Source of the DNA: Candidatus Multivorans sp. | GTDB lineage: Bacteria; Acidobacteriota; Thermoanaerobaculia; Multivoradales; Multivoraceae | Reading direction: 5' to 3' | Assembly (NCBI GenBank): GCA_965262355.1 | Contig: OZ253534.1 | Coordinates: 3,023,670-3,087,669, forward strand | DNA: 64,000 bases | In this document: one piece after another, positions 8,637-26,325 of the stretch | How the letters are laid out: the number at the start of each line of letters is the position of its first letter | Numbering within the stretch: position 1 is the stretch's first letter | Notes under the pieces: generated by a model | Databases searched by the model: none | Seen by the model: only the letters and a program-made list of their open reading frames with translations | What the model was told of the DNA's origin: nothing | Position numbers and translations under genes: made by a program

Positions 8637-9161
8637 ATGTCGATTGCTTCGCCGTCTAAACGAGCGAGACTGATCGTTCTCGCCGTTGGTGTTGCAAGCA
8701 TGTTGGGTCTCGGCGATGGTCCGGCCTTTGCCGGGTTCAAGAATGCCGACACCGATTGGATGAGGGACGGAAAGTACGGCATTTACCTCAAATACCTGAA
8801 TTGGACTCCTAGAGAAACAACATCTGCCGAATACAACCAGTGGGTCGATGCATTCGACGTAGACAGGTTCGTCGAAGCCGTCGAACTGACCGGCGCAAGC
8901 TGGGTCATCTGGGGCCTCGGACGCGTGTGGTTCAACTCGCCCAACGCAACGCTGGACGGCTTTGTGGGTGACTTCACCTCCAACCGTGACCTACCGCTCG
9001 AGATCTCCGCCGCATTGCAGGAACGAGGCATCAAGTTCATGCTGTATGCCGCGGCCGACAAGACGGAATCAGAAAATGACCCTCTTGGAAAGCTCGCCTT
9101 GGGATGGGGCCTCAATAACAGGTACACGAGTACCTATTGTAGTGTCTCCGACATGGGTTGA
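8637..9161 (+). CDS. 5' fragment of giant secreted protein gene (signal peptide + start of GH29-like alpha-L-fucosidase-fold domain), interrupted by IS630 element
   Basis: Signal peptide RLIVLAVGVASMLGLGDGPAFA; DWMRDGKYGIYLKYL and FDVDRFVEAVELTGASWVIWG resemble GH29 N-terminal motifs; the frame is terminated by a TGA inside the IS630 left inverted repeat. Confidence 0.55.
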   Translation: MSIASPSKRARLIVLAVGVASMLGLGDGPAFAGFKNADTDWMRDGKYGIYLKYLNWTPRETTSAEYNQWVDAFDVDRFVEAVELTGASWVIWGLGRVWFNSPNATLDGFVGDFTSNRDLPLEISAALQERGIKFMLYAAADKTESENDPLGKLALGWGLNNRYTSTYCSVSDMG

Positions 9162-10273
9162 CAGTCTCGGGCAAGTTCGTCAGTATTCCGTTCATGTGGG
9201 AACCAGCGGAACGACTTCACATCGAAGAGAGCGATCGAGCGCTTCTCAAGAAATGGGTAGAGGCGCCGACGACGACGCAACGCACCGTCCGGCGTAGCCG
9301 GATCGTGCTCGCTGCGGCGGAGGGCACGGCCAATCGGGCGATTGCGGCGAAACTCGGCGTTTCGCGGCCCACGGTGCTGCTGTGGCGTCGTCGGTTCGCG
9401 GAGGACGGACCTTCGGGGCTGACCAGGGATCGTCCCCGCGGTTGCGGAAAGCCGCCGCTCTCGGAGTCGGTCGTGCGTAAAATGATCGAAGCGACGCTGC
9501 ACGAGAAGCCGCCCGGTCAGACCCACTGGAGCGTGCGTTCGATGGCTCGGGCCCAGGGCATCAGTCCGGCGGCGGTCCAGCGCATCTGGGTGGCGCACGG
9601 GCTGAAGCCCCATCTGGTCAAGACGTTCAAGCTGAGCAACGACCCCAGGTTCGTGGAAAAGCTGCGGGACGTTGTGGGCCTGTACCGGAATCCGCCCGAG
9701 AACGCGCTTGTGTTGTGCGTGGACGAGAAGAGCCAGATCCAGGCTCTGGACCGGACCCAGCCGGGCTTGCCGCTCAAGCGCGGCCGCGCGGGAACGATGA
9801 CCCACGACTACAAGCGCAACGGGACGACGACGTTGTTCGCTGCGCTGAACGTGTTGGAGGGCACGGTGATCGCGGAGTGCATGGGCCGGCAGCGCCACCA
9901 GGAGTTTCTCCGTTTCCTCAAGCGTCTCGACCGTGAGATCCCGAAGCATCTCGACCTGCACCTGATCCTGGACAACTACCAGACCCACAAACACGCCGCC
10001 GTGCGCGCATGGCTGGAGCGAAAGCCTCGCTTCCACTTCCATTTCATTCCGACTTCGTCGCCCTGGCTCAACTTGGTCGAACGCTGGCTGGGCGGTCTGA
10101 CCACGAAGGCGATCCGGCGCGGTGCATTCCAGAGCGTCAACGACCTCGTAAAGACCATCTACGACTACGTGGAGCACAGCAACGAAAACTCCCGGCCGTT
10201 CGTCTGGACGGCCACCGCCGACAGCATCATCGCAAAGGTTACACGTGGTAAAGCCATGTTGGAGACAGTACAC
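9137..10273 (+). mobile_element. IS630-family insertion sequence (1137 bp) with TA target-site duplication
   Basis: Imperfect terminal inverted repeats ttgTAGTGTCTCCgACATGG (left) / rc TAGTGTactgTCTCCaACATGG (right); TA at 9135-9136 and 10274-10275; internal DDE transposase. Confidence 0.7.
9194..10273 (+). CDS. IS630-family DDE transposase (about 360 aa; no stop codon inside the element, continues in frame into host gene)
   Basis: HTH region LHIEESDRALLKKWVEAPTTTQRTVRRSRIVLAAAEG...; DDE core LVLCVDEKSQIQAL...LHLILDNYQTHKH...; last IS codons AML-ETVHY run into the right inverted repeat. Confidence 0.8.
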
Positions 10274-13200
10274 TATGTGAACAATTGGGCGGATGTGCTC
10301 CAAGTCTGGTCCGATCGCTATGCAACAAAAGTGTCGGGCTGGTGGATCGATCATGCCTATCAACGCTATGCCGTTTCGGTGACCGCCCGGGGTGCCTCCA
10401 ATCCGGAGTTCGCGATCTACAGAGATCATCTCCTTTCCGGGAATCCGAACAGCATTGTGGCGTTCAATCACGGTTGGCGGGACCTGGATGCCCACACCCC
10501 CGAAGAGGACTACAGGTCCGGGCACGAACGTGCAATCGCGGAAAGCGTTGCATCTTCCAGATGGTGGCATGGGCTCCAGTGGCACTACCTGTCTCGTCTT
10601 GGTCCTGGCCTTTGGGGGTCGGAGGGTATTCGATATGACACACAGGTCCTGATCGACTACGTCAACGAAAACAACCGGCACGAAGGGGCGAACACTTTCA
10701 GCGTGTTTGTCTACTCGAAGCCGGGCGAGTCGGCTGAGGGTATTGTCAAATCACCGGGGAACCTCAGCAATGCCCAGATCCGGCAACTGTCGGCGCTACG
10801 GGATGCGTCGCTACAGTTCGTGGACGACACGTCGGACGACGTCACCTTCGTCGGGACGTGGGAGCGGATGGACGACGAGCTGGACTTCCGCGGCTCGACC
10901 ACCGGGTCGGATGAGGCGGACGCCCATGCCGAGTTGGCGTTTTCGGGAATCGGCGTGGAGGTGGTCGTGAGGAGAGGTCGGAACGGCGGCCTGGTCGATG
11001 TGGAACTGGATGGCGACGTCGTGTTGGATGATTTCGATACGTACTCGCGGGCGACGGCGTTCAAACAGGTCATCTACACCAACAAGAATCTTGATGCGGG
11101 GTCTCACACGGTACGACTGGTCGCGACCGGCCGAAAGAGCGCCGGCGCGACAGCCGCCGACGCAATGTTGGACAACTTCGCGGTGACCATGGCGGACACA
11201 ATGCGCCCGCGGGTGTTGTCGGTCACGAGCGACGCGTCGCACCCGACGAAGGACTCCTTTACGGTGACGATCGACTTCCTGGAGGATGTCACGGGGCTTC
11301 GGGCGGGAGAAATATCCGTCAGCAACGGCTCCGTCTCGAACTTCGCAGGCTCGGGCGCCAGCTACACGCTCGACATCGCGCCGACCGCGGGCCTGGAGGG
11401 CGAGGTGACGGTTGACGTCCCGGCCAATGCGGTGGTGGACGGAGCGAGCAACGGCAACCTGGAGGGAAGCGAGACTTTCGCCGTGGACACGCGGGTCCCC
11501 GTGATTCAGACGGCGGTGGCGAACCAGGCTGTGCTGACCCTTGTCTACGGCGAGGCGTTGGACCCGCTTTCGGTGCCGCCGGCGAGTGCCTTCACCCTGA
11601 CGGGGGGCGGGGCGCCGCGCACGATTTCGAACGTGGTGGTGAACGGGAGTCGGGTGGTGTTTTCCATTGACCCTCCGGCGTCGTACGGCGAAGCGGGCCT
11701 GCAGGTCGGCTACTCGGCGCCTTCGGGCGGTGCCCTGGTCGACGCACTGGGCAACAAGGTTCCGTCATTCACGAACCAGGCGGTCGCCAACGAATCGCCG
11801 GGCACGACACTTTCCACCGACACATGGATCACCGGTGCGACGGCGTTCTCGGTGCGGGAGGGCGACACGGCGGTGGCGACGCTCACGGCGACGGAAGCGG
11901 CCACTGCTGCTGGGGATCCGGTCTGGTGGATCCCTTCGGGTGCTGCTGGCGGGCCGGACGGCGGCAAGTTCGCTCTCAGTCGCGCCGGCGTGCTCACGTT
12001 TGCCGCGGCGAAGGACTTCGAGGCCCCGGACGACGCGAACGCCGACGGCGGCTACCAAGTCACGGTCCAGTTGAGCGTCGGCGCGTTGACCGCCGCGGCC
12101 GACCTGACGGTGACACTCACCAACCGCAACGAGGCGCCGGTGGCCGATGCACGCGCCGTTCAGCCGATTGTGGCCCAGGGCGCCACGGCGACCCTGAGTG
12201 GTTCGGGGAGCGACCCGGACGCCGACGACACCCTGACCTACGCCTGGACGCAGACGGGCACTCCCGCGGTGGCGCTGTCGGATACGGCGGCCGCCTCCCC
12301 GACCTTCACCGCGCCTTCCAACCTGACTGAGGACACTACGCTGTCGTTCACCCTCCGAGTCGCCGACTCGAGCGGTCTTTATCACGAGGACGCGGTATCG
12401 GTGACGGTGCAAGAAAACCCCCTGCTCACCGCGGCGTTCGAGAACGCGCCGGCCCGCCACGACGGCTCGACACCGTTCGCGGTGGATCTTCGATTCAGCG
12501 ACGAGGTCGCACTTTGGTACTCGGCGTTCACCTCAGGGTTGCTTACAACCACCGGCGGGACGGTGCAGCGCGCGAGCCGTCTGGTGCTGCGTAGCAACAT
12601 TGGATGGCGGATCCCAGTGACGCCGGACGGGGACGGCGACGTGGTGATCACGTTGCCGGCGAACCGCCCCTGCAGTTGGCTGACCGGGGCGTGTGCGCGG
12701 GACGGCCGGAAACTGGCGGTGGCGGCCAGCGTCACGGTGCCCGGTCCGGTGCCCAGTCCGGCGCCCGATATCACCAGCGCGGCGGCGTTCACGGTCCAGG
12801 AAGGCGAGACGGCGGTCGGGACGCTGACGGCGACGGACGCGGACACGCAGGCATCCGGTCTGAGCTGGTCGCTGAGCGGTGGAGCGGACCAGGCGAAGTT
12901 CGCCATCACGAGCGCCGGCGCGCTGAGCTTCGCGGGGGTGAAGGACTACGAGGCGCCGGACGACGCCAACACGGACGGCGCCTACCAGGTGACGGTGCAG
13001 GTGAGCGACGGTGGGCGCACGGACACGGCGGATCTGACGGTGACGCTGACGAACGTGAACGAGGCGCCGACGGCGGACGCGGGCCCGGACCAGCCGGGGG
13101 TCGAGCCGGGGGCGCAGGTGACGCTGAGCGGTACGGGGACGGACCCGGACGCCGGCGACACGCTGAGCTACGCGTGGACACAGACGGGTGGGACGAGCGT

Positions 13201-15850
13201 GACGCTGACAGGCGGCGCCACGGCCACGGCGACGTTCACGTTACCGAGCGGGGCGGCCGACGACGACGAATTCACGTTCAAGCTCAAGGTCGCCGATGCC
13301 GCCGGGCTGTCCGCCGAGGACTCGGTGAGGGTGACGGTGCGGGCCGTCGCGTCTACGGACCCCGCAGCGACCGTGGAGGTATTGAACGAGGACTTCGACG
13401 ACGGCGATGCGGACGGGTGGACGGTCTACGACGGAAGCTGGTCGGTCACGGACGGTACGTACGGGGTCAACGGCGGGGGAGAGCGCAAGGCGGTAGCGGC
13501 GGCGATCGACGTTGCGGACTTCGTGCTGGAAGCCGAGGTTCGGGTGAAGTCGAACTCGGGTGATTCGGGGGTGGTATTCCGGGTGAGCGATCCGGGGACC
13601 GGGACCGACAACTACAAGGGCTACTACGTGGGCGTCGCCACCGACTCGTCGCTGGTGTTCGGCAAGGCGAACGCGGGTCGGTGGGAGGAGTTGGACAGGG
13701 AGAATCTGGCGTTCACGTCAGGCCTCTGGTACAGGTTGAAGGTCGTGGCGTCGGGGGCTTCGATCCGAGTCTACGTATCGGACGTGCTCACGATCGAGGC
13801 GACGGACGATACCTACGACAGTGGCGCGATCGGCTTGCGGACGTGGCGCGCCGAGGCGGACTGGGACAACGTTGCCGTTGCGAAGATCCTCGAGGAGGAT
13901 AGCGTCGGATTCCGGGTCACGGCTGCGCCAGGGGAGATCGACGAGGGGGCCGCCACGACGGTGACCGTGGCGACCGTGAACGGTGCGACATTTGCCGAGG
14001 CGCAGGACATCGCCCTCGAGGTGTCGGGGTCTGCGTCGGCGGCCGACTACGAGATGGCCTCGACCGGCTTGACGCTGGCGGCCGGGACGGCAGCGGTGTC
14101 GGTGGAACTGACAGCGGTGGATGACGAGGCCGAGGAGGCTGCGGAGACGGTGACGGTGACGGCGGCACGCGGCGGCTCGGAGATCGGTTCGGCCACGGTG
14201 ACGATCCGGGCCAGCGACGAGGCGGCGGTCGTGGAACCGGCGGCGCCGGAGATCAGCAGCGCGTCGACGTTCTCGGTAGCGGAGGATACGACGGCAGTGG
14301 CCACGCTGGCGGCGACGGACGCGGACACGCAGGCGTCCGGCCTGACGTGGTCGCTGAGCGGTGGAGCGGACCAGGCGAAGTTCGCCATCACGAGCGCCGG
14401 CGCGCTGAGCTTCGCGGAGGCGAAGGACTACGAGGCGCCGGACGACGCCAACACGGACGGCGCCTACCAGGTGACGGTGCAGGTGAGCGACGGTGGGCGC
14501 ACGGACACGGCGGACCTGACCGTGACGCTGACGAACGCGAACGAGGCGCCGACGGCGGACGCGGGCCCGGACCAGCCGGGGGTCGAGCCGGGGGCGCAGG
14601 TGACGCTTGGTGGTACGGGGACGGACCCGGACGCCGGCGACACGCTGAGCTACGCGTGGACGCAGACGGGTGGGACGAGCGTGACGCTGACGGGCGGCGC
14701 CACGGCCACGGCGACGTTCGCGGCGCCGGACGATCTTCCGGCGAGCGAGGAGCTGACGTTCCGGCTGCGGGTCACGGACGCGGGCGGGCTGCACGACGAC
14801 GACACGGTGAGGGTGACGGTCCAGGCGAGCGACGAGTCGTCGTCAACGGAATCGGACGTGGAGTGGGGCGAGCGTCTGCGGGACCGCGACATCGTGCTGC
14901 CCAGCGGCTCGAAGCCCACCGGGCTGTGGTCGGACGGAACCACACTGTGGGTCCTCTCCGAGTGGAACAGCGGGCAGGTGCTGACCTATTCTCTGGCCGA
15001 CGGGACGCGCCTGACCGAGGGCGAGGTCACGCTACCGGACGGCGTCACGCCAGGGAGCAGTAGCTTCCGATTGACCGGAAACGGGTTCCCGGCAGGGCTG
15101 TGGTCGGACGGCACCACGCTGTGGGTGGCGGATTATTTTGGCGGCGTACGCGCGTACCGGCTGGCTGACGGCGCCCGCCTGGAGACCGATGACCTGCCCG
15201 ACGACGTGCTGGCGGCGGCGGGCAACAGTGCTCCGACGGGGCTGTGGTCGGACGGCGAGTTCTTGTGGGTGACCGACCACTGGCAATACCAAGTGTTTGC
15301 CTACCGGCTCTCCGACAAGGCGCGGGTGGCGGACGAGGAGTTCGAGCTGTGGGACGGCCTCACGCCGTACGGAGGTTTCGGGCTGTGGTCGGATGGCGAG
15401 ACGGCGCTGGTCGGCCCATCATTCTACGCTCGCGTGCTCGCTCATTCGCTGGCGACCGGCGAGCAACAGGCGGAACGGACCGTGGACCTCTCGGCGGACG
15501 GTGTCCGCAGGTCGAACGGGCTGTGGTCGGACGGCGAGACGCTGTGGGTGGCGAACGAACGTCACAACCGCATCTACGCCTACGCCGTACCGGGACTTCG
15601 CCGAGCCAGCGCGCGGAATGCCCTCCGAACCCAATCGGAGGACTTAGGCGTGCGGGTGCAGACAGAGACGCGTGGGAAGGAGGTGTCTGTGGGCGAATCG
15701 ACGGCGGACACGCCCGCTGCCATTCCCGACCCGGTGCTGAGCGCGTTGATCGCCCCGGCGCTGGGCAAGGAGTCGGGCGAGCCGATCAGCTTGCGCGAGA
15801 TTGCGGCCTTGACCATGGAGAAGCGGGCGCCGCAGTTCACCGGGCGCTGA
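10274..15850 (+). CDS. 3' portion (about 1,858 codons) of the giant secreted protein. Domains: rest of the GH29-like fold, a lectin-like module, a cadherin-like plus PKD-like module, a DUF1080/ConA-like domain, a Calx-beta domain, a second cadherin-like plus PKD-like module, a 5-repeat beta-propeller-like region (GLWSDGxTLWV), and a crotonase-like tail
   Basis: Cadherin-like WSLSGGADQAKFAITSAGALSF...DYEAPDDANTDGAYQVTVQVSDGG...LTVTLTNVNEAP; PKD-like DTLSYAWTQTGG; DUF1080-like DGWTVYDGSWSVTDGTY...IRVYV; five GLWSDG.TLWV repeats; ends EIAALTMEKRAPQFTGR. Confidence 0.7.
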   Translation, partial: YVNNWADVLQVWSDRYATKVSGWWIDHAYQRYAVSVTARGASNPEFAIYRDHLLSGNPNSIVAFNHGWRDLDAHTPEEDYRSGHERAIAESVASSRWWHGLQWHYLSRLGPGLWGSEGIRYDTQVLIDYVNENNRHEGANTFSVFVYSKPGESAEGIVKSPGNLSNAQIRQLSALRDASLQFVDDTSDDVTFVGTWERMDDELDFRGSTTGSDEADAHAELAFSGIGVEVVVRRGRNGGLVDVELDGDVVLDDFDTYSRATAFKQVIYTNKNLDAGSHTVRLVATGRKSAGATAADAMLDNFAVTMADTMRPRVLSVTSDASHPTKDSFTVTIDFLEDVTGLRAGEISVSNGSVSNFAGSGASYTLDIAPTAGLEGEVTVDVPANAVVDGASNGNLEGSETFAVDTRVPVIQTAVANQAVLTLVYGEALDPLSVPPASAFTLTGGGAPRTISNVVVNGSRVVFSIDPPASYGEAGLQVGYSAPSGGALVDALGNKVPSFTNQAVANESPGTTLSTDTWITGATAFSVREGDTAVATLTATEAATAAGDPVWWIPSGAAGGPDGGKFALSRAGVLTFAAAKDFEAPDDANADGGYQVTVQLSVGALTAAADLTVTLTNRNEAPVADARAVQPIVAQGATATLSGSGSDPDADDTLTYAWTQTGTPAVALSDTAAASPTFTAPSNLTEDTTLSFTLRVADSSGLYHEDAVSVTVQENPLLTAAFENAPARHDGSTPFAVDLRFSDEVALWYSAFTSGLLTTTGGTVQRASRLVLRSNIGWRIPVTPDGDGDVVITLPANRPCSWLTGACARDGRKLAVAASVTVPGPVPSPAPDITSAAAFTVQEGETAVGTLTATDADTQASGLSWSLSGGADQAKFAITSAGALSFAGVKDYEAPDDANTDGAYQVTVQVSDGGRTDTADLTVTLTNVNEAPTADAGPDQPGVEPGAQVTLSGTGTDPDAGDTLSYAWTQTGGTSVTLTGGATATATFTLPSGAADDDEFTFKLKVADAAGLSAEDSVRVTVRAVASTDPAATVEVLNEDFDDGDADGWTVYDGSWSVTDGTYGVNGGGERKAVAAAIDVADFVLEAEVRVKSNSGDSGVVFRVSDPGTGTDNYKGYYVGVATDSSLVFGKANAGRWEELDRENLAFTSGLWYRLKVVASGASIRVYVSDVLTIEATDDTYDSGAIGLRTWRAEADWDNVAVAKILEEDSVGFRVTAAPGEIDEGAATTVTVATVNGATFAEAQDIALEVSGSASAADYEMASTGLTLAAGTAAVSVELTAVDDEAEEAAETVTVTAARGGSEIGSATVTIRASDEAAVVEPAAPEISSASTFSVAEDTTAVATLAATDADTQASGLTWSLSGGADQAKFAITSAGALSFAEAKDYEAPDDANTDGAYQVTVQVSDGGRTDTADLTVTLTNANEAPTADAGPDQPGVEPGAQVTLGGTGTDPDAGDTLSYAWTQTGGTSVTLTGGATATATFAAPDDLPASEELTFRLRVTDAGGLHDDDTVRVTVQASDESSSTESDVEWGERLRDRDIVLPSGSKPTGLWSDGTTLWVLSEWNSGQVLTYSLADGTRLTEGEVTLPDGVTPGSSSFRLTGNGFPAGLWSDGTTLWVADYFGGVRAYRLADGARLETDDLPDDVLAAAGNSAPTGLWSDGEFLWVTDHWQYQVFAYRLSDKARVADEEFELWDGLTPYGGFGLWSDGETALVGPSFYARVLAHSLATGEQQAERTVDLSADGVRRSNGLWSDGETLWVANERHNRIYAYAVPGLRRASARNALRTQSEDLGVRVQTETRGKEVSVGESTADTPAAIPDPVLSALIAPALGKESGEPISLREIAALTMEKRAPQFTGR
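12838..13230 (+). repeat. Intragenic direct repeat copy 1 (cadherin-like + PKD-like module), about 97% identical at the DNA level to 14320-14718
   Basis: Near-identical about 390-bp DNA stretches from gacgcggacacgcagg... to ...gccacggcgacgttc. Confidence 0.8.
14320..14718 (+). repeat. Intragenic direct repeat copy 2
   Basis: See copy 1. Confidence 0.8.
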
Positions 15851-25672: not shown

Positions 25673-26325
25673 GCGCGCTGCATTGGGACGCCCTCGAGCC
25701 CAATGCGCGGGAAGCGTTCGCGCTCGTCTCGCGGGCTCTGACCGGCACCGACTACTACCTGGCGGGAGGTACAGCTCTTGCCCTCATGGAGGGGCACCGG
25801 ATCTCGGTGGACCTCGATGTCTTCACTCACACGATGACGGACATCGAGACGGTGCTGGGCCGCCTTCGCGGACAGGTACCGGAACTCTCGGTCACCTCGG
25901 TTAGTGCGGGCACTCTCTACGTTGAGGTGCTTGGGGTGCAGGTTTCGGTGATCGAGTACGGTTACCCGCTCTTGGGTCCGACGGTGTCGTCGAACGGCCC
26001 TGGTCTGGTGCTCGCTAGTCGAGATGACATCGCGACGATGAAGCTCTCGGCGATTGCCAACCGTGGCAGCCGCAAGGACTTCGTCGATCTCTGGGTCTTG
26101 CTCAACCGGCACCGGTCGCTACGTGAGTATCTGAAACTCTTTGAGCAGAAGTTCGCGGTGCGGGACGTGGGACACGTCGTTCGCAGTCTCGTTCACTTCG
26201 ACGACGCAGAACGCGATCCGCCGTTGCGGCTCCTGGCCGACATCGAGTGGGAGCTTGTCAAGAGGGACTATCGGTCGCGCGTTGACCGTCTGCTGGCGGA
26301 TTGCCGAACCACCCTGCCGGACTGA
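25669..26325 (+). CDS. AbiEii/AbiGii-family nucleotidyltransferase toxin (type IV TA)
   Basis: GGTALALMEGHRISVDLDVF (GS-x-DxD NTase motif), ATMKLSAIANRGSRKDFVDLW. Confidence 0.7.
   Translation: MSALHWDALEPNAREAFALVSRALTGTDYYLAGGTALALMEGHRISVDLDVFTHTMTDIETVLGRLRGQVPELSVTSVSAGTLYVEVLGVQVSVIEYGYPLLGPTVSSNGPGLVLASRDDIATMKLSAIANRGSRKDFVDLWVLLNRHRSLREYLKLFEQKFAVRDVGHVVRSLVHFDDAERDPPLRLLADIEWELVKRDYRSRVDRLLADCRTTLPD

Follow-up and report, generated by a model that had tools for sequence, protein, structure and literature searches.

The 64,000-nucleotide stretch of DNA analyzed here (the window) covers positions 3,023,670 to 3,087,669 of contig OZ253534.1 from a Candidatus Multivorans sp. (GenBank assembly GCA_965262355.1). 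Between positions 8637 and 15850, it contains one gene, interrupted by a transposon within its first domain, for a modular, Sec-exported surface or extracellular protein. Toward its C terminus, the encoded protein carries a propeller made of five LWSDG repeats, which belongs to a very large uncurated family without a Pfam or NCBIfam model or a solved structure, within a well-known fold class. This propeller is the most noteworthy element of the locus, and none of the findings overturns current understanding. As an explanation for the locus as a whole, we favor, with moderate confidence, a fucosidase-like enzyme split by an insertion sequence (IS) and set on an adhesion stalk with a binding propeller, the gene being of chimeric origin. 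All features described below lie on the + strand unless stated otherwise.

In its present form, the gene consists of two open reading frames (ORFs). The first, of 174 codons (8637-9161), starts with a signal-peptide-like sequence, and the second is open from 9158 to 15850, with an IS630-type transposase in its first ~370 codons and the uninterrupted 3′ part of the gene thereafter (10276-15850). The element responsible is a 1,137-bp IS of the IS630 family (9137..10273) that has imperfect 20-nt terminal inverted repeats (TTGTAGTGTCTCCGACATGG and GTGTACTGTCTCCAACATGG, 17/20 matching by eye), is flanked by a TA target duplication (9135-9136 and 10274-10275), and encodes a transposase with a DDE_3 domain (84.2 bits in Pfam) and N-terminal helix-turn-helix (HTH) matches (HTH_23, HTH_29, HTH_32, and HTH_28), so that every defining feature of the IS630 family is present. 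A single copy of the element was found within the 64-kb window. Once the IS and one copy of the TA are removed, positions 8637-9136 and 10276-15850 join into a single ORF of 2,024 codons, and the junction of the restored protein (…NNRYTSTY/VNNWADV…) is gap-free in the alignment with homologs. The restored ORF opens with a start codon and a Sec-type signal peptide (MSIASPSKRARLIVLAVGVASMLGLGDGPAFA, amino acids [aa] 1-32, 8637..8732), recognized in the translation without scoring. A preliminary description of this DNA had proposed a giant secreted protein; the restored ORF with its signal peptide confirms it as a single gene, and the start given there, position 10274, is the right-hand TA of the insertion. 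No IS-free ortholog of the whole protein was found, the best propeller match being 50% identical over the full length and 70% over half.

Since the IS lies in the codon for Tyr167, inside the catalytic domain and upstream of its putative nucleophile, the enzyme is destroyed in this genome. The gene is now inactivated, and all that is left of it is a fragment of 174 aa plus an ORF that reads through from the transposase into the stalk. The transposase ORF (starting at 9194, or at a TTG at 9158) has no stop codon of its own. The junction reads ...CAC/TAT (window 10259-10278), and the transposase ORF therefore stays open across the junction and takes in, in the same frame, the 1,858 codons of the host gene that are left, ending at 15850. 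In two related elements at locus L083 (~10540-10575 and ~12720-12760), the ORF ends in ...CAC/TAG, where the stop codon is formed by the duplicated TA and the following base.

The propeller occupies aa ~1694-1943 (14855..15604). Its LWSDG motifs are located at aa 1717, 1775, 1823, 1870, and 1916 (window ~14915-15604), and the repeat units are 43-60 aa long with 33-60% pairwise identity, which agrees with the five GLWSDG repeats of about 45 aa reported previously. The blades are too diverged to form a tandem array at the DNA level, and none was detected over them by Tandem Repeats Finder. AlphaFold2 (AF2), run with an 80-sequence alignment, produced a closed five-bladed propeller (predicted local distance difference test [pLDDT] score, 90.7; predicted template modeling [pTM] score, 0.89) in which every repeat accounts for four strands, the first three long and the last one short. 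From the secondary-structure pattern, we infer that the N-terminal ERLRDRDIVL segment may provide the outer strand of blade 5, the last one. Alignment of the 80 homologs gave a consensus of five near-identical blades, DF.TL..AGN..P.GLWSDGTT.WV.D...K.YAY.L..G.R., with a nearly invariant W-S-x-G…W…A-Y set repeated across blades.

Homologs of this propeller are abundant. At least 350 were recovered by a word-indexed search, and a profile search of 1.84 billion cluster representatives (50% identity) matched 11,390 proteins at an E value of ≤1e-3, 5,728 at 1e-10, and 2,684 at 1e-30. They occur in Candidatus Poriferisodalis, Ekhidna, Gemmatimonadetes, metagenome-assembled genomes (MAGs) of Acidimicrobiia and Dehalococcoidia, and marine Verrucomicrobiota MAGs, and where annotations are given, they read “hypothetical protein” or “cadherin(-like) domain-containing protein.” Recurrent domain partners are Cadherin-like (PF12733), fn3, cadherin, leucine-rich repeat (LRR), CARDB, and Calx-beta domains, and giants with several propellers are frequent, for instance, a 5,143-aa protein with 27 matched stretches. 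Neither Pfam nor NCBIfam, including their glutaminyl-cyclase and SGL models, returned anything significant for the window propeller, and comparison with PDB sequences, using the single sequence or the 80-sequence profile, gave no match at an E value of ≤0.001. Strong members of the family likewise showed only sub-threshold Pfam matches to SGL, Lactonase, and DUF6242 along with spurious short ones. Two candidate relatives were discarded, namely, the designed NHL-type “Pizza” protein, whose match is at chance level (E value of 0.3), and the GLWGNG repeat of lysozyme (E value of 0.0055), which we judged to be unrelated. In the papers searched, the LWSDG motif did not occur in this context, and nothing relevant was found on structure 9PNJ or “Candidatus Multivorans.” The suggestion that the repeats form a five-bladed, NHL/SMP30-like propeller without a nameable family thus holds after both hidden Markov model (HMM) scans and structure prediction, neither of which assigned the repeats confidently to a known family.

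The nearest solved folds are five-bladed propellers of the glutaminyl cyclase (3mbr and 3nok) and YjiK type (C-terminal domain of E. coli YjiK, 3qqz). While the window propeller shares its five-bladed fold with the glutaminyl cyclases, it is only 13-19% identical to these proteins, has no HMM or sequence match to place it among them, repeats LWSDG...W.(x)D...YAY in every blade, and is of a type that occurs as a module, often in multiple copies, in giant adhesin-like proteins. A second comparison concerns the NHL, YWTD (LDL-receptor class B), and SMP-30/gluconolactonase/LRE-like propellers, with which it shares the blade pattern P.G(l/v)a.D..g.lyV.D......i..y in register (phmmer against “Pizza”). 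These have six blades instead of five, their families, including NHL (PF01436) and SGL (PF08450), gave no match at Pfam thresholds, and the invariant W-S-D-G and Y-A-Y signature of the window propeller is distinct.

Past the blades, the C-terminal tail and stop codon span 15605..15850, and a BLASTP alignment with the propeller relative P0043 is collinear through the linker into the start of an LRR domain. In relatives, an LRR domain comes after the propeller (LRR_4/LRR_8 in P0005 and P0043); positions 15698-15814 resemble its N-cap, and the ORF stops 11 codons later. The last ~80 aa of the protein therefore appear, from this alignment, to be a vestigial LRR N-cap whose LRR domain was deleted. 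The tail itself (AIPDPVLSALIAPALGKESGEPISLREIAAL, 15698-15850) aligns with the start of the LRR domains of P0005 and P0043 and is followed by ~130 nt up to a convergent gene. These two closest relatives of the propeller (P0043 at L084 1744-2949; P0005 at L083 6584-7666) are shortened. P0043 is without about two blades, with an apparent blade-to-blade deletion (GLWSDGE/SMWVA), and both come from long-read assemblies of low coverage, where several transposase genes or broken ORFs surround them. These observations suggest frequent rearrangement or degradation of such genes, although assembly error is another possibility.

At the other end of the protein, the N-terminal domain (first part, aa 33-167, 8733..9136; second part, aa 168-345, 10276..10810) is best interpreted, from profile and model comparisons, as a divergent (beta/alpha)8 member of the clan that unites glycoside hydrolase families GH29 and GH107, which we take to be CAZy clan GH-R. 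Its homologs include five proteins with 62-70% identity (P0121-P0125) and two stand-alone forms of 321-327 aa (P0126 and P0127; 31-33% identity, E values of 1e-32 to 1e-34) that consist of a signal peptide and the catalytic domain only. A profile built on a 7-sequence alignment retrieved FucWf4 of Wenyingzhuangia fucanilytica (9pnj) from the PDB with an E value of 2e-21 over ~200 residues, followed by GH107 endo-fucoidanases (2.6e-5 to 1.4e-4, ~95 residues) and, weakly, classical GH29 enzymes. An AF2 model from the same alignment (pLDDT, 67.7; pTM, 0.78) likewise had the “GH29-like fucosidase FucWf4” (9pnk/9pnj) as its top Foldseek match (E value of 4e-15), ahead of many GH29 structures with E values of 1e-9 to 1e-15. 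An HHDGF-type stretch after beta-2 has a fucose-binding role in GH29. In the window domain, its place is taken by WVIWGLGRVWFNSPN (8901-8945), a stretch conserved within the subfamily, and HHDGF is missing. The earlier view of a GH29-like TIM-barrel devoid of HHDGF is therefore upheld by profile and fold. FucWf4, the nearest solved relative, has the same (beta/alpha)8 fold, a G-x-x-x-D motif whose Asp closes beta-4, and a marine, fucan-related setting, and it also lacks the canonical HHDGF, with CAHGTQHW there in the alignment. It differs in being only ~20-22% identical to the window domain, in having ~200 extra N-terminal residues, in having no cadherin/PKD/propeller stalk, and in not being disrupted by an IS; a further difference is the candidate acid/base of the window domain, which is His, as in GH107.

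The putative nucleophile of the domain is Asp192 (GWWID, 10349-10351), which is invariant, aligns with the D of the FucWf4 “IDDGG” motif and with D226 of the GH107 enzyme MfFcnA, and ends the strand formed by residues E156-160 (beta-4) of the model, the location of the GH29 nucleophile (PMC10154630). The candidate acid/base is His250 (DYRSGH, 10523-10525), aligned with MfFcnA H294; in GH29, the general acid/base is a Glu following beta-6, and the corresponding column holds Glu in the stand-alone P0126 and P0127. Judging from these alignments and the model, the intact domain probably worked by a retaining mechanism as an alpha-L-fucosidase or a fucanase, Asp192 serving as the nucleophile and His250 likely as the acid/base. 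Alternatively, the domain may not be an exo-alpha-L-fucosidase but a GH107-like endo-fucanase or an enzyme active on another sugar, which we regard as possible, if doubtful. Its Asp/His pair aligns with the GH107 catalytic pair D226/H294, the fucose-binding HHDGF stretch is missing, identity to FucWf4 is low, and GH29 itself includes alpha-galactosidases and alpha-glucosidases (PMC10154630). However, the exo-fucosidase FucWf4, an enzyme that takes terminal alpha-1,3/4 fucose off sulfated fuco-oligosaccharides (PMC11189522), is by far the best match in both sequence and fold (2e-21 versus 3e-5 for GH107), and the GH107 alignment spans only ~95 residues. The domain adds a subfamily around the recently solved FucWf4, its possible Asp/His catalytic pair forming a link between GH29 and GH107, and would bear on the turnover of recalcitrant sulfated fucans.

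Between the enzyme and the propeller lies a long series of modules. The domain order of the restored protein is GH29-like, CBM-like (for carbohydrate-binding module), Big_12, SWM, three cadherin+PKD modules (M1 to M3) with other domains among them, propeller, and truncated LRR cap; in detail, the middle part runs M1, an unassigned, probably Ig-like domain, M2, DUF1080, a weak Calx-beta-like domain, and M3. The CBM-like beta-sandwich (aa 346-472, 10811..11191), previously called a lectin-like module, was named with too much confidence, as its best Pfam matches are below threshold (CBM_6, E value of 0.019, 15.7 bits against a cut-off of 28.9; CE2_N, E value of 0.038), and it is kept beside the catalytic domain in the homologs P0125 and L002. 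It is followed by two Ig-like domains (11195..11725), a Big_12 domain (aa 474-567; 56.6 bits, cut-off of 27) and an SWM-like repeat (aa 570-650; SWM_repeat, 26.1 bits, slightly below the cut-off of 27). M1 (aa 668-875, 11777..12400) matches Big_9, Cadherin, K319L-like_PKD, and Sde0182_C in Pfam and includes the DNA repeat families D1 and D3. The ~110-aa domain that comes next (aa 876-984, 12401..12727) has no match in Pfam at an E value of ≤10 or in NCBIfam at ≤1 and, from its position and composition, is probably Ig-like. M2 (aa 985-1192, 12728..13351; best K319L-like_PKD stretch, 1102-1188) precedes the ConA-like DUF1080/3-keto-disaccharide-hydrolase domain (3keto-disac_hyd, PF06439; aa 1206-1368, 13391..13879), whose earlier identification is secured by 67.8 bits against a cut-off of 26.8 (E value of 1.7e-18, profile positions 5-186 of 187). 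The Calx-beta call for aa 1376-1477 (13901..14206) was overconfident as well, with Pfam PF03160 reaching 10.9 bits (E value of 0.47) against a cut-off of 27; length and a DDE-rich motif are compatible with the label “Calx-like,” which we keep as a lead. Such a segment stands immediately before the propeller in P0043, and PF03160 matches occur in some relatives of the propeller family. M3 (aa 1479-1686, 14210..14833; best Cadherin stretch, 1498-1585) is a near-copy of M2. Curated families in Pfam and NCBIfam thus gave nothing significant for the catalytic domain (33-345), the CBM-like module (346-472), the middle domain (876-984), or the propeller.

Three cadherin+PKD modules, rather than two, were recognized by DNA and protein self-comparison, with strong matches to cadherin (PF00028, 62.5 bits, cut-off of 28.8), Big_9 (76.4 bits), and K319L-like_PKD (PF22352, 174.8 bits in 4 stretches). 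The order of domains given in the preliminary description was mostly right, yet it lacked Big_12, the SWM-like repeat, the ~110-aa domain, and one of these modules. M1 shares 54-57% aa identity with M2 and M3, which are 78% identical to each other overall and, as had been noticed, near-identical in their core: the central ~400 nt (12848-13208 in M2, 14330-14690 in M3) show 93-100% DNA identity, with flanks of 65-77%. M2 and M3 also have the highest guanine-plus-cytosine (GC) content at third codon positions (GC3) of the gene, 0.92-0.93. The near-identical tract indicates either gene conversion within the gene or a partial duplication of very recent date, and given the direct adjacency of the Calx-like segment and the propeller in P0043, the sequence would be compatible with an insertion of M3 between the two.

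A contrast in composition between the 5′ and 3′ parts of the gene had been put forward as a sign of module fusion. The contrast is real, with a GC content of 0.561 for 8637-10700 without the IS versus 0.687 for 10701-15850, but with the IS included the 5′ part reaches 0.598, not the 0.52-0.56 initially given. By domain, GC and GC3 are 0.573 and 0.53 in the signal peptide, 0.565 and 0.681 in the catalytic domain, 0.627 and 0.82 in the CBM-like module, and 0.65-0.73 and 0.83-0.93 in all later domains; the IS has a GC content of 0.63 (transposase GC3, 0.81). The 33 other genes of the window have a GC content of 0.678±0.016 and a GC3 of 0.870±0.039 (minimum, 0.80), relative to which the catalytic-domain GC3 has a z score of -4.8. 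In a windowed analysis, composition was not uniform: within the 64 kb, GC content is lowest at the catalytic domain, and 400-nt windows below 0.61 GC are confined to 8600-10900, apart from a minor exception around 25.8 kb. The low-GC block begins at the start codon, and the intergenic DNA upstream is at 0.69-0.70. The same pattern is seen in homologs, where the catalytic part has a GC content of 0.535 and a GC3 of 0.60 in L002 (0.662 and 0.81 downstream) and values of 0.507 and 0.55 in L085 (then ~0.67 downstream). Synonymous divergence (dS) between copies is 0.44-1.2 in the catalytic part and 0.73 in the CBM-like plus Big_12 part, the homologs standing at a dS of 0.8-1.2 from the window copy. 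Because the contrast is common to homologs at this distance, the fusion is old and did not happen recently in this genome; the mosaic of composition, though genuine, was already present in the ancestry of the lineage.

The architecture of the homologs further supports fusion. The catalytic domain, the CBM-like module, and Big_12 are common to all three copies, beyond which the homologs have fn3 and other domains versus cadherin, PKD, DUF1080, and the propeller here, and stand-alone catalytic forms exist (P0126 and P0127). In our reading of these sequences, a signal-peptide and enzyme unit of lower-GC origin would have been joined to a high-GC stalk before the known copies diverged, and the stalk would have been reshuffled since. 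A different account, which we deem unlikely, is that no modules were fused and that the contrast stems from the amino-acid content of the catalytic domain or from selection acting locally on it. Consistent with it, GC at the first and second codon positions of the catalytic domain is also low (0.56 and 0.45, respectively), because N, Y, W, K, F, and I are abundant there, whereas A, G, T, D, and V abound in the stalk, and the persistence of the contrast in three homologs at a dS of 0.8-1.2 is somewhat unexpected under simple amelioration. Amino-acid composition cannot account for the GC3 gap, however, as GC3 is largely free of amino-acid constraint and stands at 0.68 versus 0.87±0.04 here and at 0.55-0.60 versus ~0.8 downstream in the homologs. 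In addition, the start codon marks the exact beginning of the low-GC block, which spans a unit found on its own elsewhere, C-terminal parts vary among homologs, and one homolog lies in a conjugative-element context. The fusion of modules, which we prefer, accounts only in part for a GC3 gap that persists over a dS of ~1.

Mobile elements are found around these homologs. The closest catalytic homolog, P0121 (L001/L002 1-20700, from another metagenome assembly), is separated from the downstream part by an IS66 transposase and a DruA-like gene, and its locus adjoins a type IV secretion system (T4SS) module (TrbI, CagX, VirB4, VirB3, and TrbC), ArdC, and RepA_C, i.e., a conjugative-element context. 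At L085 (1620-8965), four tandem pairs of DUF6788 and UPF0236 genes, which look like a repeated mobile element, lie directly upstream of the fucosidase-like homolog.

Regarding the role of the propeller, each blade retains the same conserved residues across proteins that are only 30-50% identical, and the blades within one protein are unusually alike. Multivalent propeller lectins are pseudo-symmetric binding modules with repeated conserved residues. Because conserved residues recur in every blade here and the domain partners are adhesion modules, not enzymes, the propeller is most likely a pseudo-symmetric ligand-binding module, lectin-like or matrix-binding, which is our preferred hypothesis by analogy. 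Two points weigh on the other side: the binding role is drawn from the conservation pattern and the domain partners, and the closest solved fold, glutaminyl cyclase, is an enzyme. It is nevertheless quite improbable that the propeller is an enzyme, be it a divergent glutaminyl cyclase of the bacterial/plant type or a hydrolase of the SMP30/lactonase kind, given that the corresponding Pfam/NCBIfam models and the PDB sequences gave no match, that the same conserved residues are found in each blade and not as one asymmetric set, and that many members have several propellers per giant protein beside adhesion modules, which would be unusual for such enzymes. In the loci compared, there were no conserved neighbors of the propeller genes hinting at a function, enzymatic or other. 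As a tentative extension of the binding hypothesis, LWSDG propellers might constitute an undescribed family of pseudo-fivefold multivalent lectins or matrix binders that marine host-associated bacteria from at least five named lineages (Acidobacteriota, Acidimicrobiia, Bacteroidota, Gemmatimonadota, and Verrucomicrobiota) use, often in multiple copies, for attachment to sponges, corals, or algae. An HMM for this uncatalogued family, which counts at least 2,684 clusters at the strictest of the E values above, would improve the annotation of marine and sponge-symbiont genomes and provide a concrete candidate for host or glycan attachment. If it is indeed a binding family, a major part of sponge-symbiont adhesion repertoires would have been overlooked, as Pfam-based counts of “eukaryote-like” factors miss it.

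Brought together, these observations suggest the following history. The N-terminal domain would have acted as an alpha-L-fucosidase or fucanase in the intact protein, with the CBM-like sandwich, the Ig-like domains, the three cadherin+PKD modules, DUF1080, and the Calx-like domain forming a long stalk ending in the propeller, which may tether the protein or the cell to host or algal glycans or matrix. Before the split of the three known copies, the signal-peptide and catalytic unit would have been joined to a high-GC adhesin array that was already resident, and such genes may move on or near mobile elements. An IS630-family element inserted at a TA inside the catalytic domain and now splits the gene. 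Several points count against this explanation. Recognition of the signal peptide was by eye, the habitat in sponges or corals discussed below comes from the names of related MAGs and not from the window, and the enzymatic assignment of the catalytic subfamily is drawn from sequence and a model that is itself moderate (pLDDT, 67.7). Around His250, pLDDT falls below 50, so that the acid/base assignment depends on a partial sequence alignment. Furthermore, neither the window domain nor P0121 matches Pfam GH29 (PF01120, cut-off of 25.2 bits) even at an E value of ≤10, whereas the relatives P0126 and P0127 do (48.3 and 37.7 bits, respectively), and GH29 membership is therefore only transitive. Although composition changes close to a repeat element, where misassembly classically occurs, we reject as extremely improbable an assembly chimera of a low-GC 5′ part and a high-GC 3′ part from different organisms joined at the IS, since removing the IS and one TA restores the frame exactly and leaves the domain gap-free against homologs, low GC continues ~530 bp past the IS (10276-10810), and the catalytic/CBM-like/Big_12 junction is found in independent assemblies (P0125/L085 and L002). 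Under the history outlined above, the locus illustrates several processes in the evolution of such surface proteins: their modules are shuffled, gene conversion acts within a gene, a mosaic of composition persists over a long time, mobile elements are associated with them, and an IS can inactivate them.

The host is a member of the Acidobacteriota (Thermoanaerobaculia). Its prolyl-tRNA synthetase-like gene (ProRS, 2917-4527) shares 89-93% identity with its counterparts in Acidobacteriota/Thermoanaerobaculia MAGs, including “Candidatus Multivorans”/“Multivoraceae,” and the names of related MAGs or isolates (Plut_ for coral; RHO1_ and SB0667 for sponges) suggest coral and sponge sources. For MAGs from sponges, an enrichment in GH29/GH95, cadherin and fn3 proteins, eukaryote-like repeats, and genes acquired laterally is reported (PMC8163846). 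A cadherin/PKD stalk bearing a fucosidase-like enzyme therefore suits this niche, and the architecture, first described as unusual, is instead typical of sponge-symbiont surface proteins. The proteins with eukaryote-like adhesion domains described for sponge symbionts, together with the glycoside hydrolases of these bacteria (Robbins et al. 2021, PMC8163846), resemble the window protein in their cadherin, PKD, and Ig-like domains, LRR (vestigial here), and GH29-type enzyme, as well as in host lineage and nearby mobile elements; unlike in those systems, the enzyme and the adhesion modules of the window are in one polypeptide. This literature counts Pfam families, and the propeller, being invisible to Pfam, is thus not counted there.

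Within the window, the neighbors of the gene encode an extracytoplasmic function (ECF) sigma factor, an enoyl-CoA hydratase, a Gcw_chp porin-like protein, and a sigma-54 activator. T4SS or integrative and conjugative element genes were looked for beside the window gene and none were found, and the mobile-element context of the L002 homolog is therefore not common to it. The only other stretch of the window with a 400-nt GC content at or below ~0.61 lies at ~25800-26300 (0.600-0.608). A second kind of IS is present ~6.5 kb upstream of the gene, where an IS110-family transposase gene (DEDD_Tnp_IS110 and Transposase_20) occupies positions 785-2167 of the - strand.

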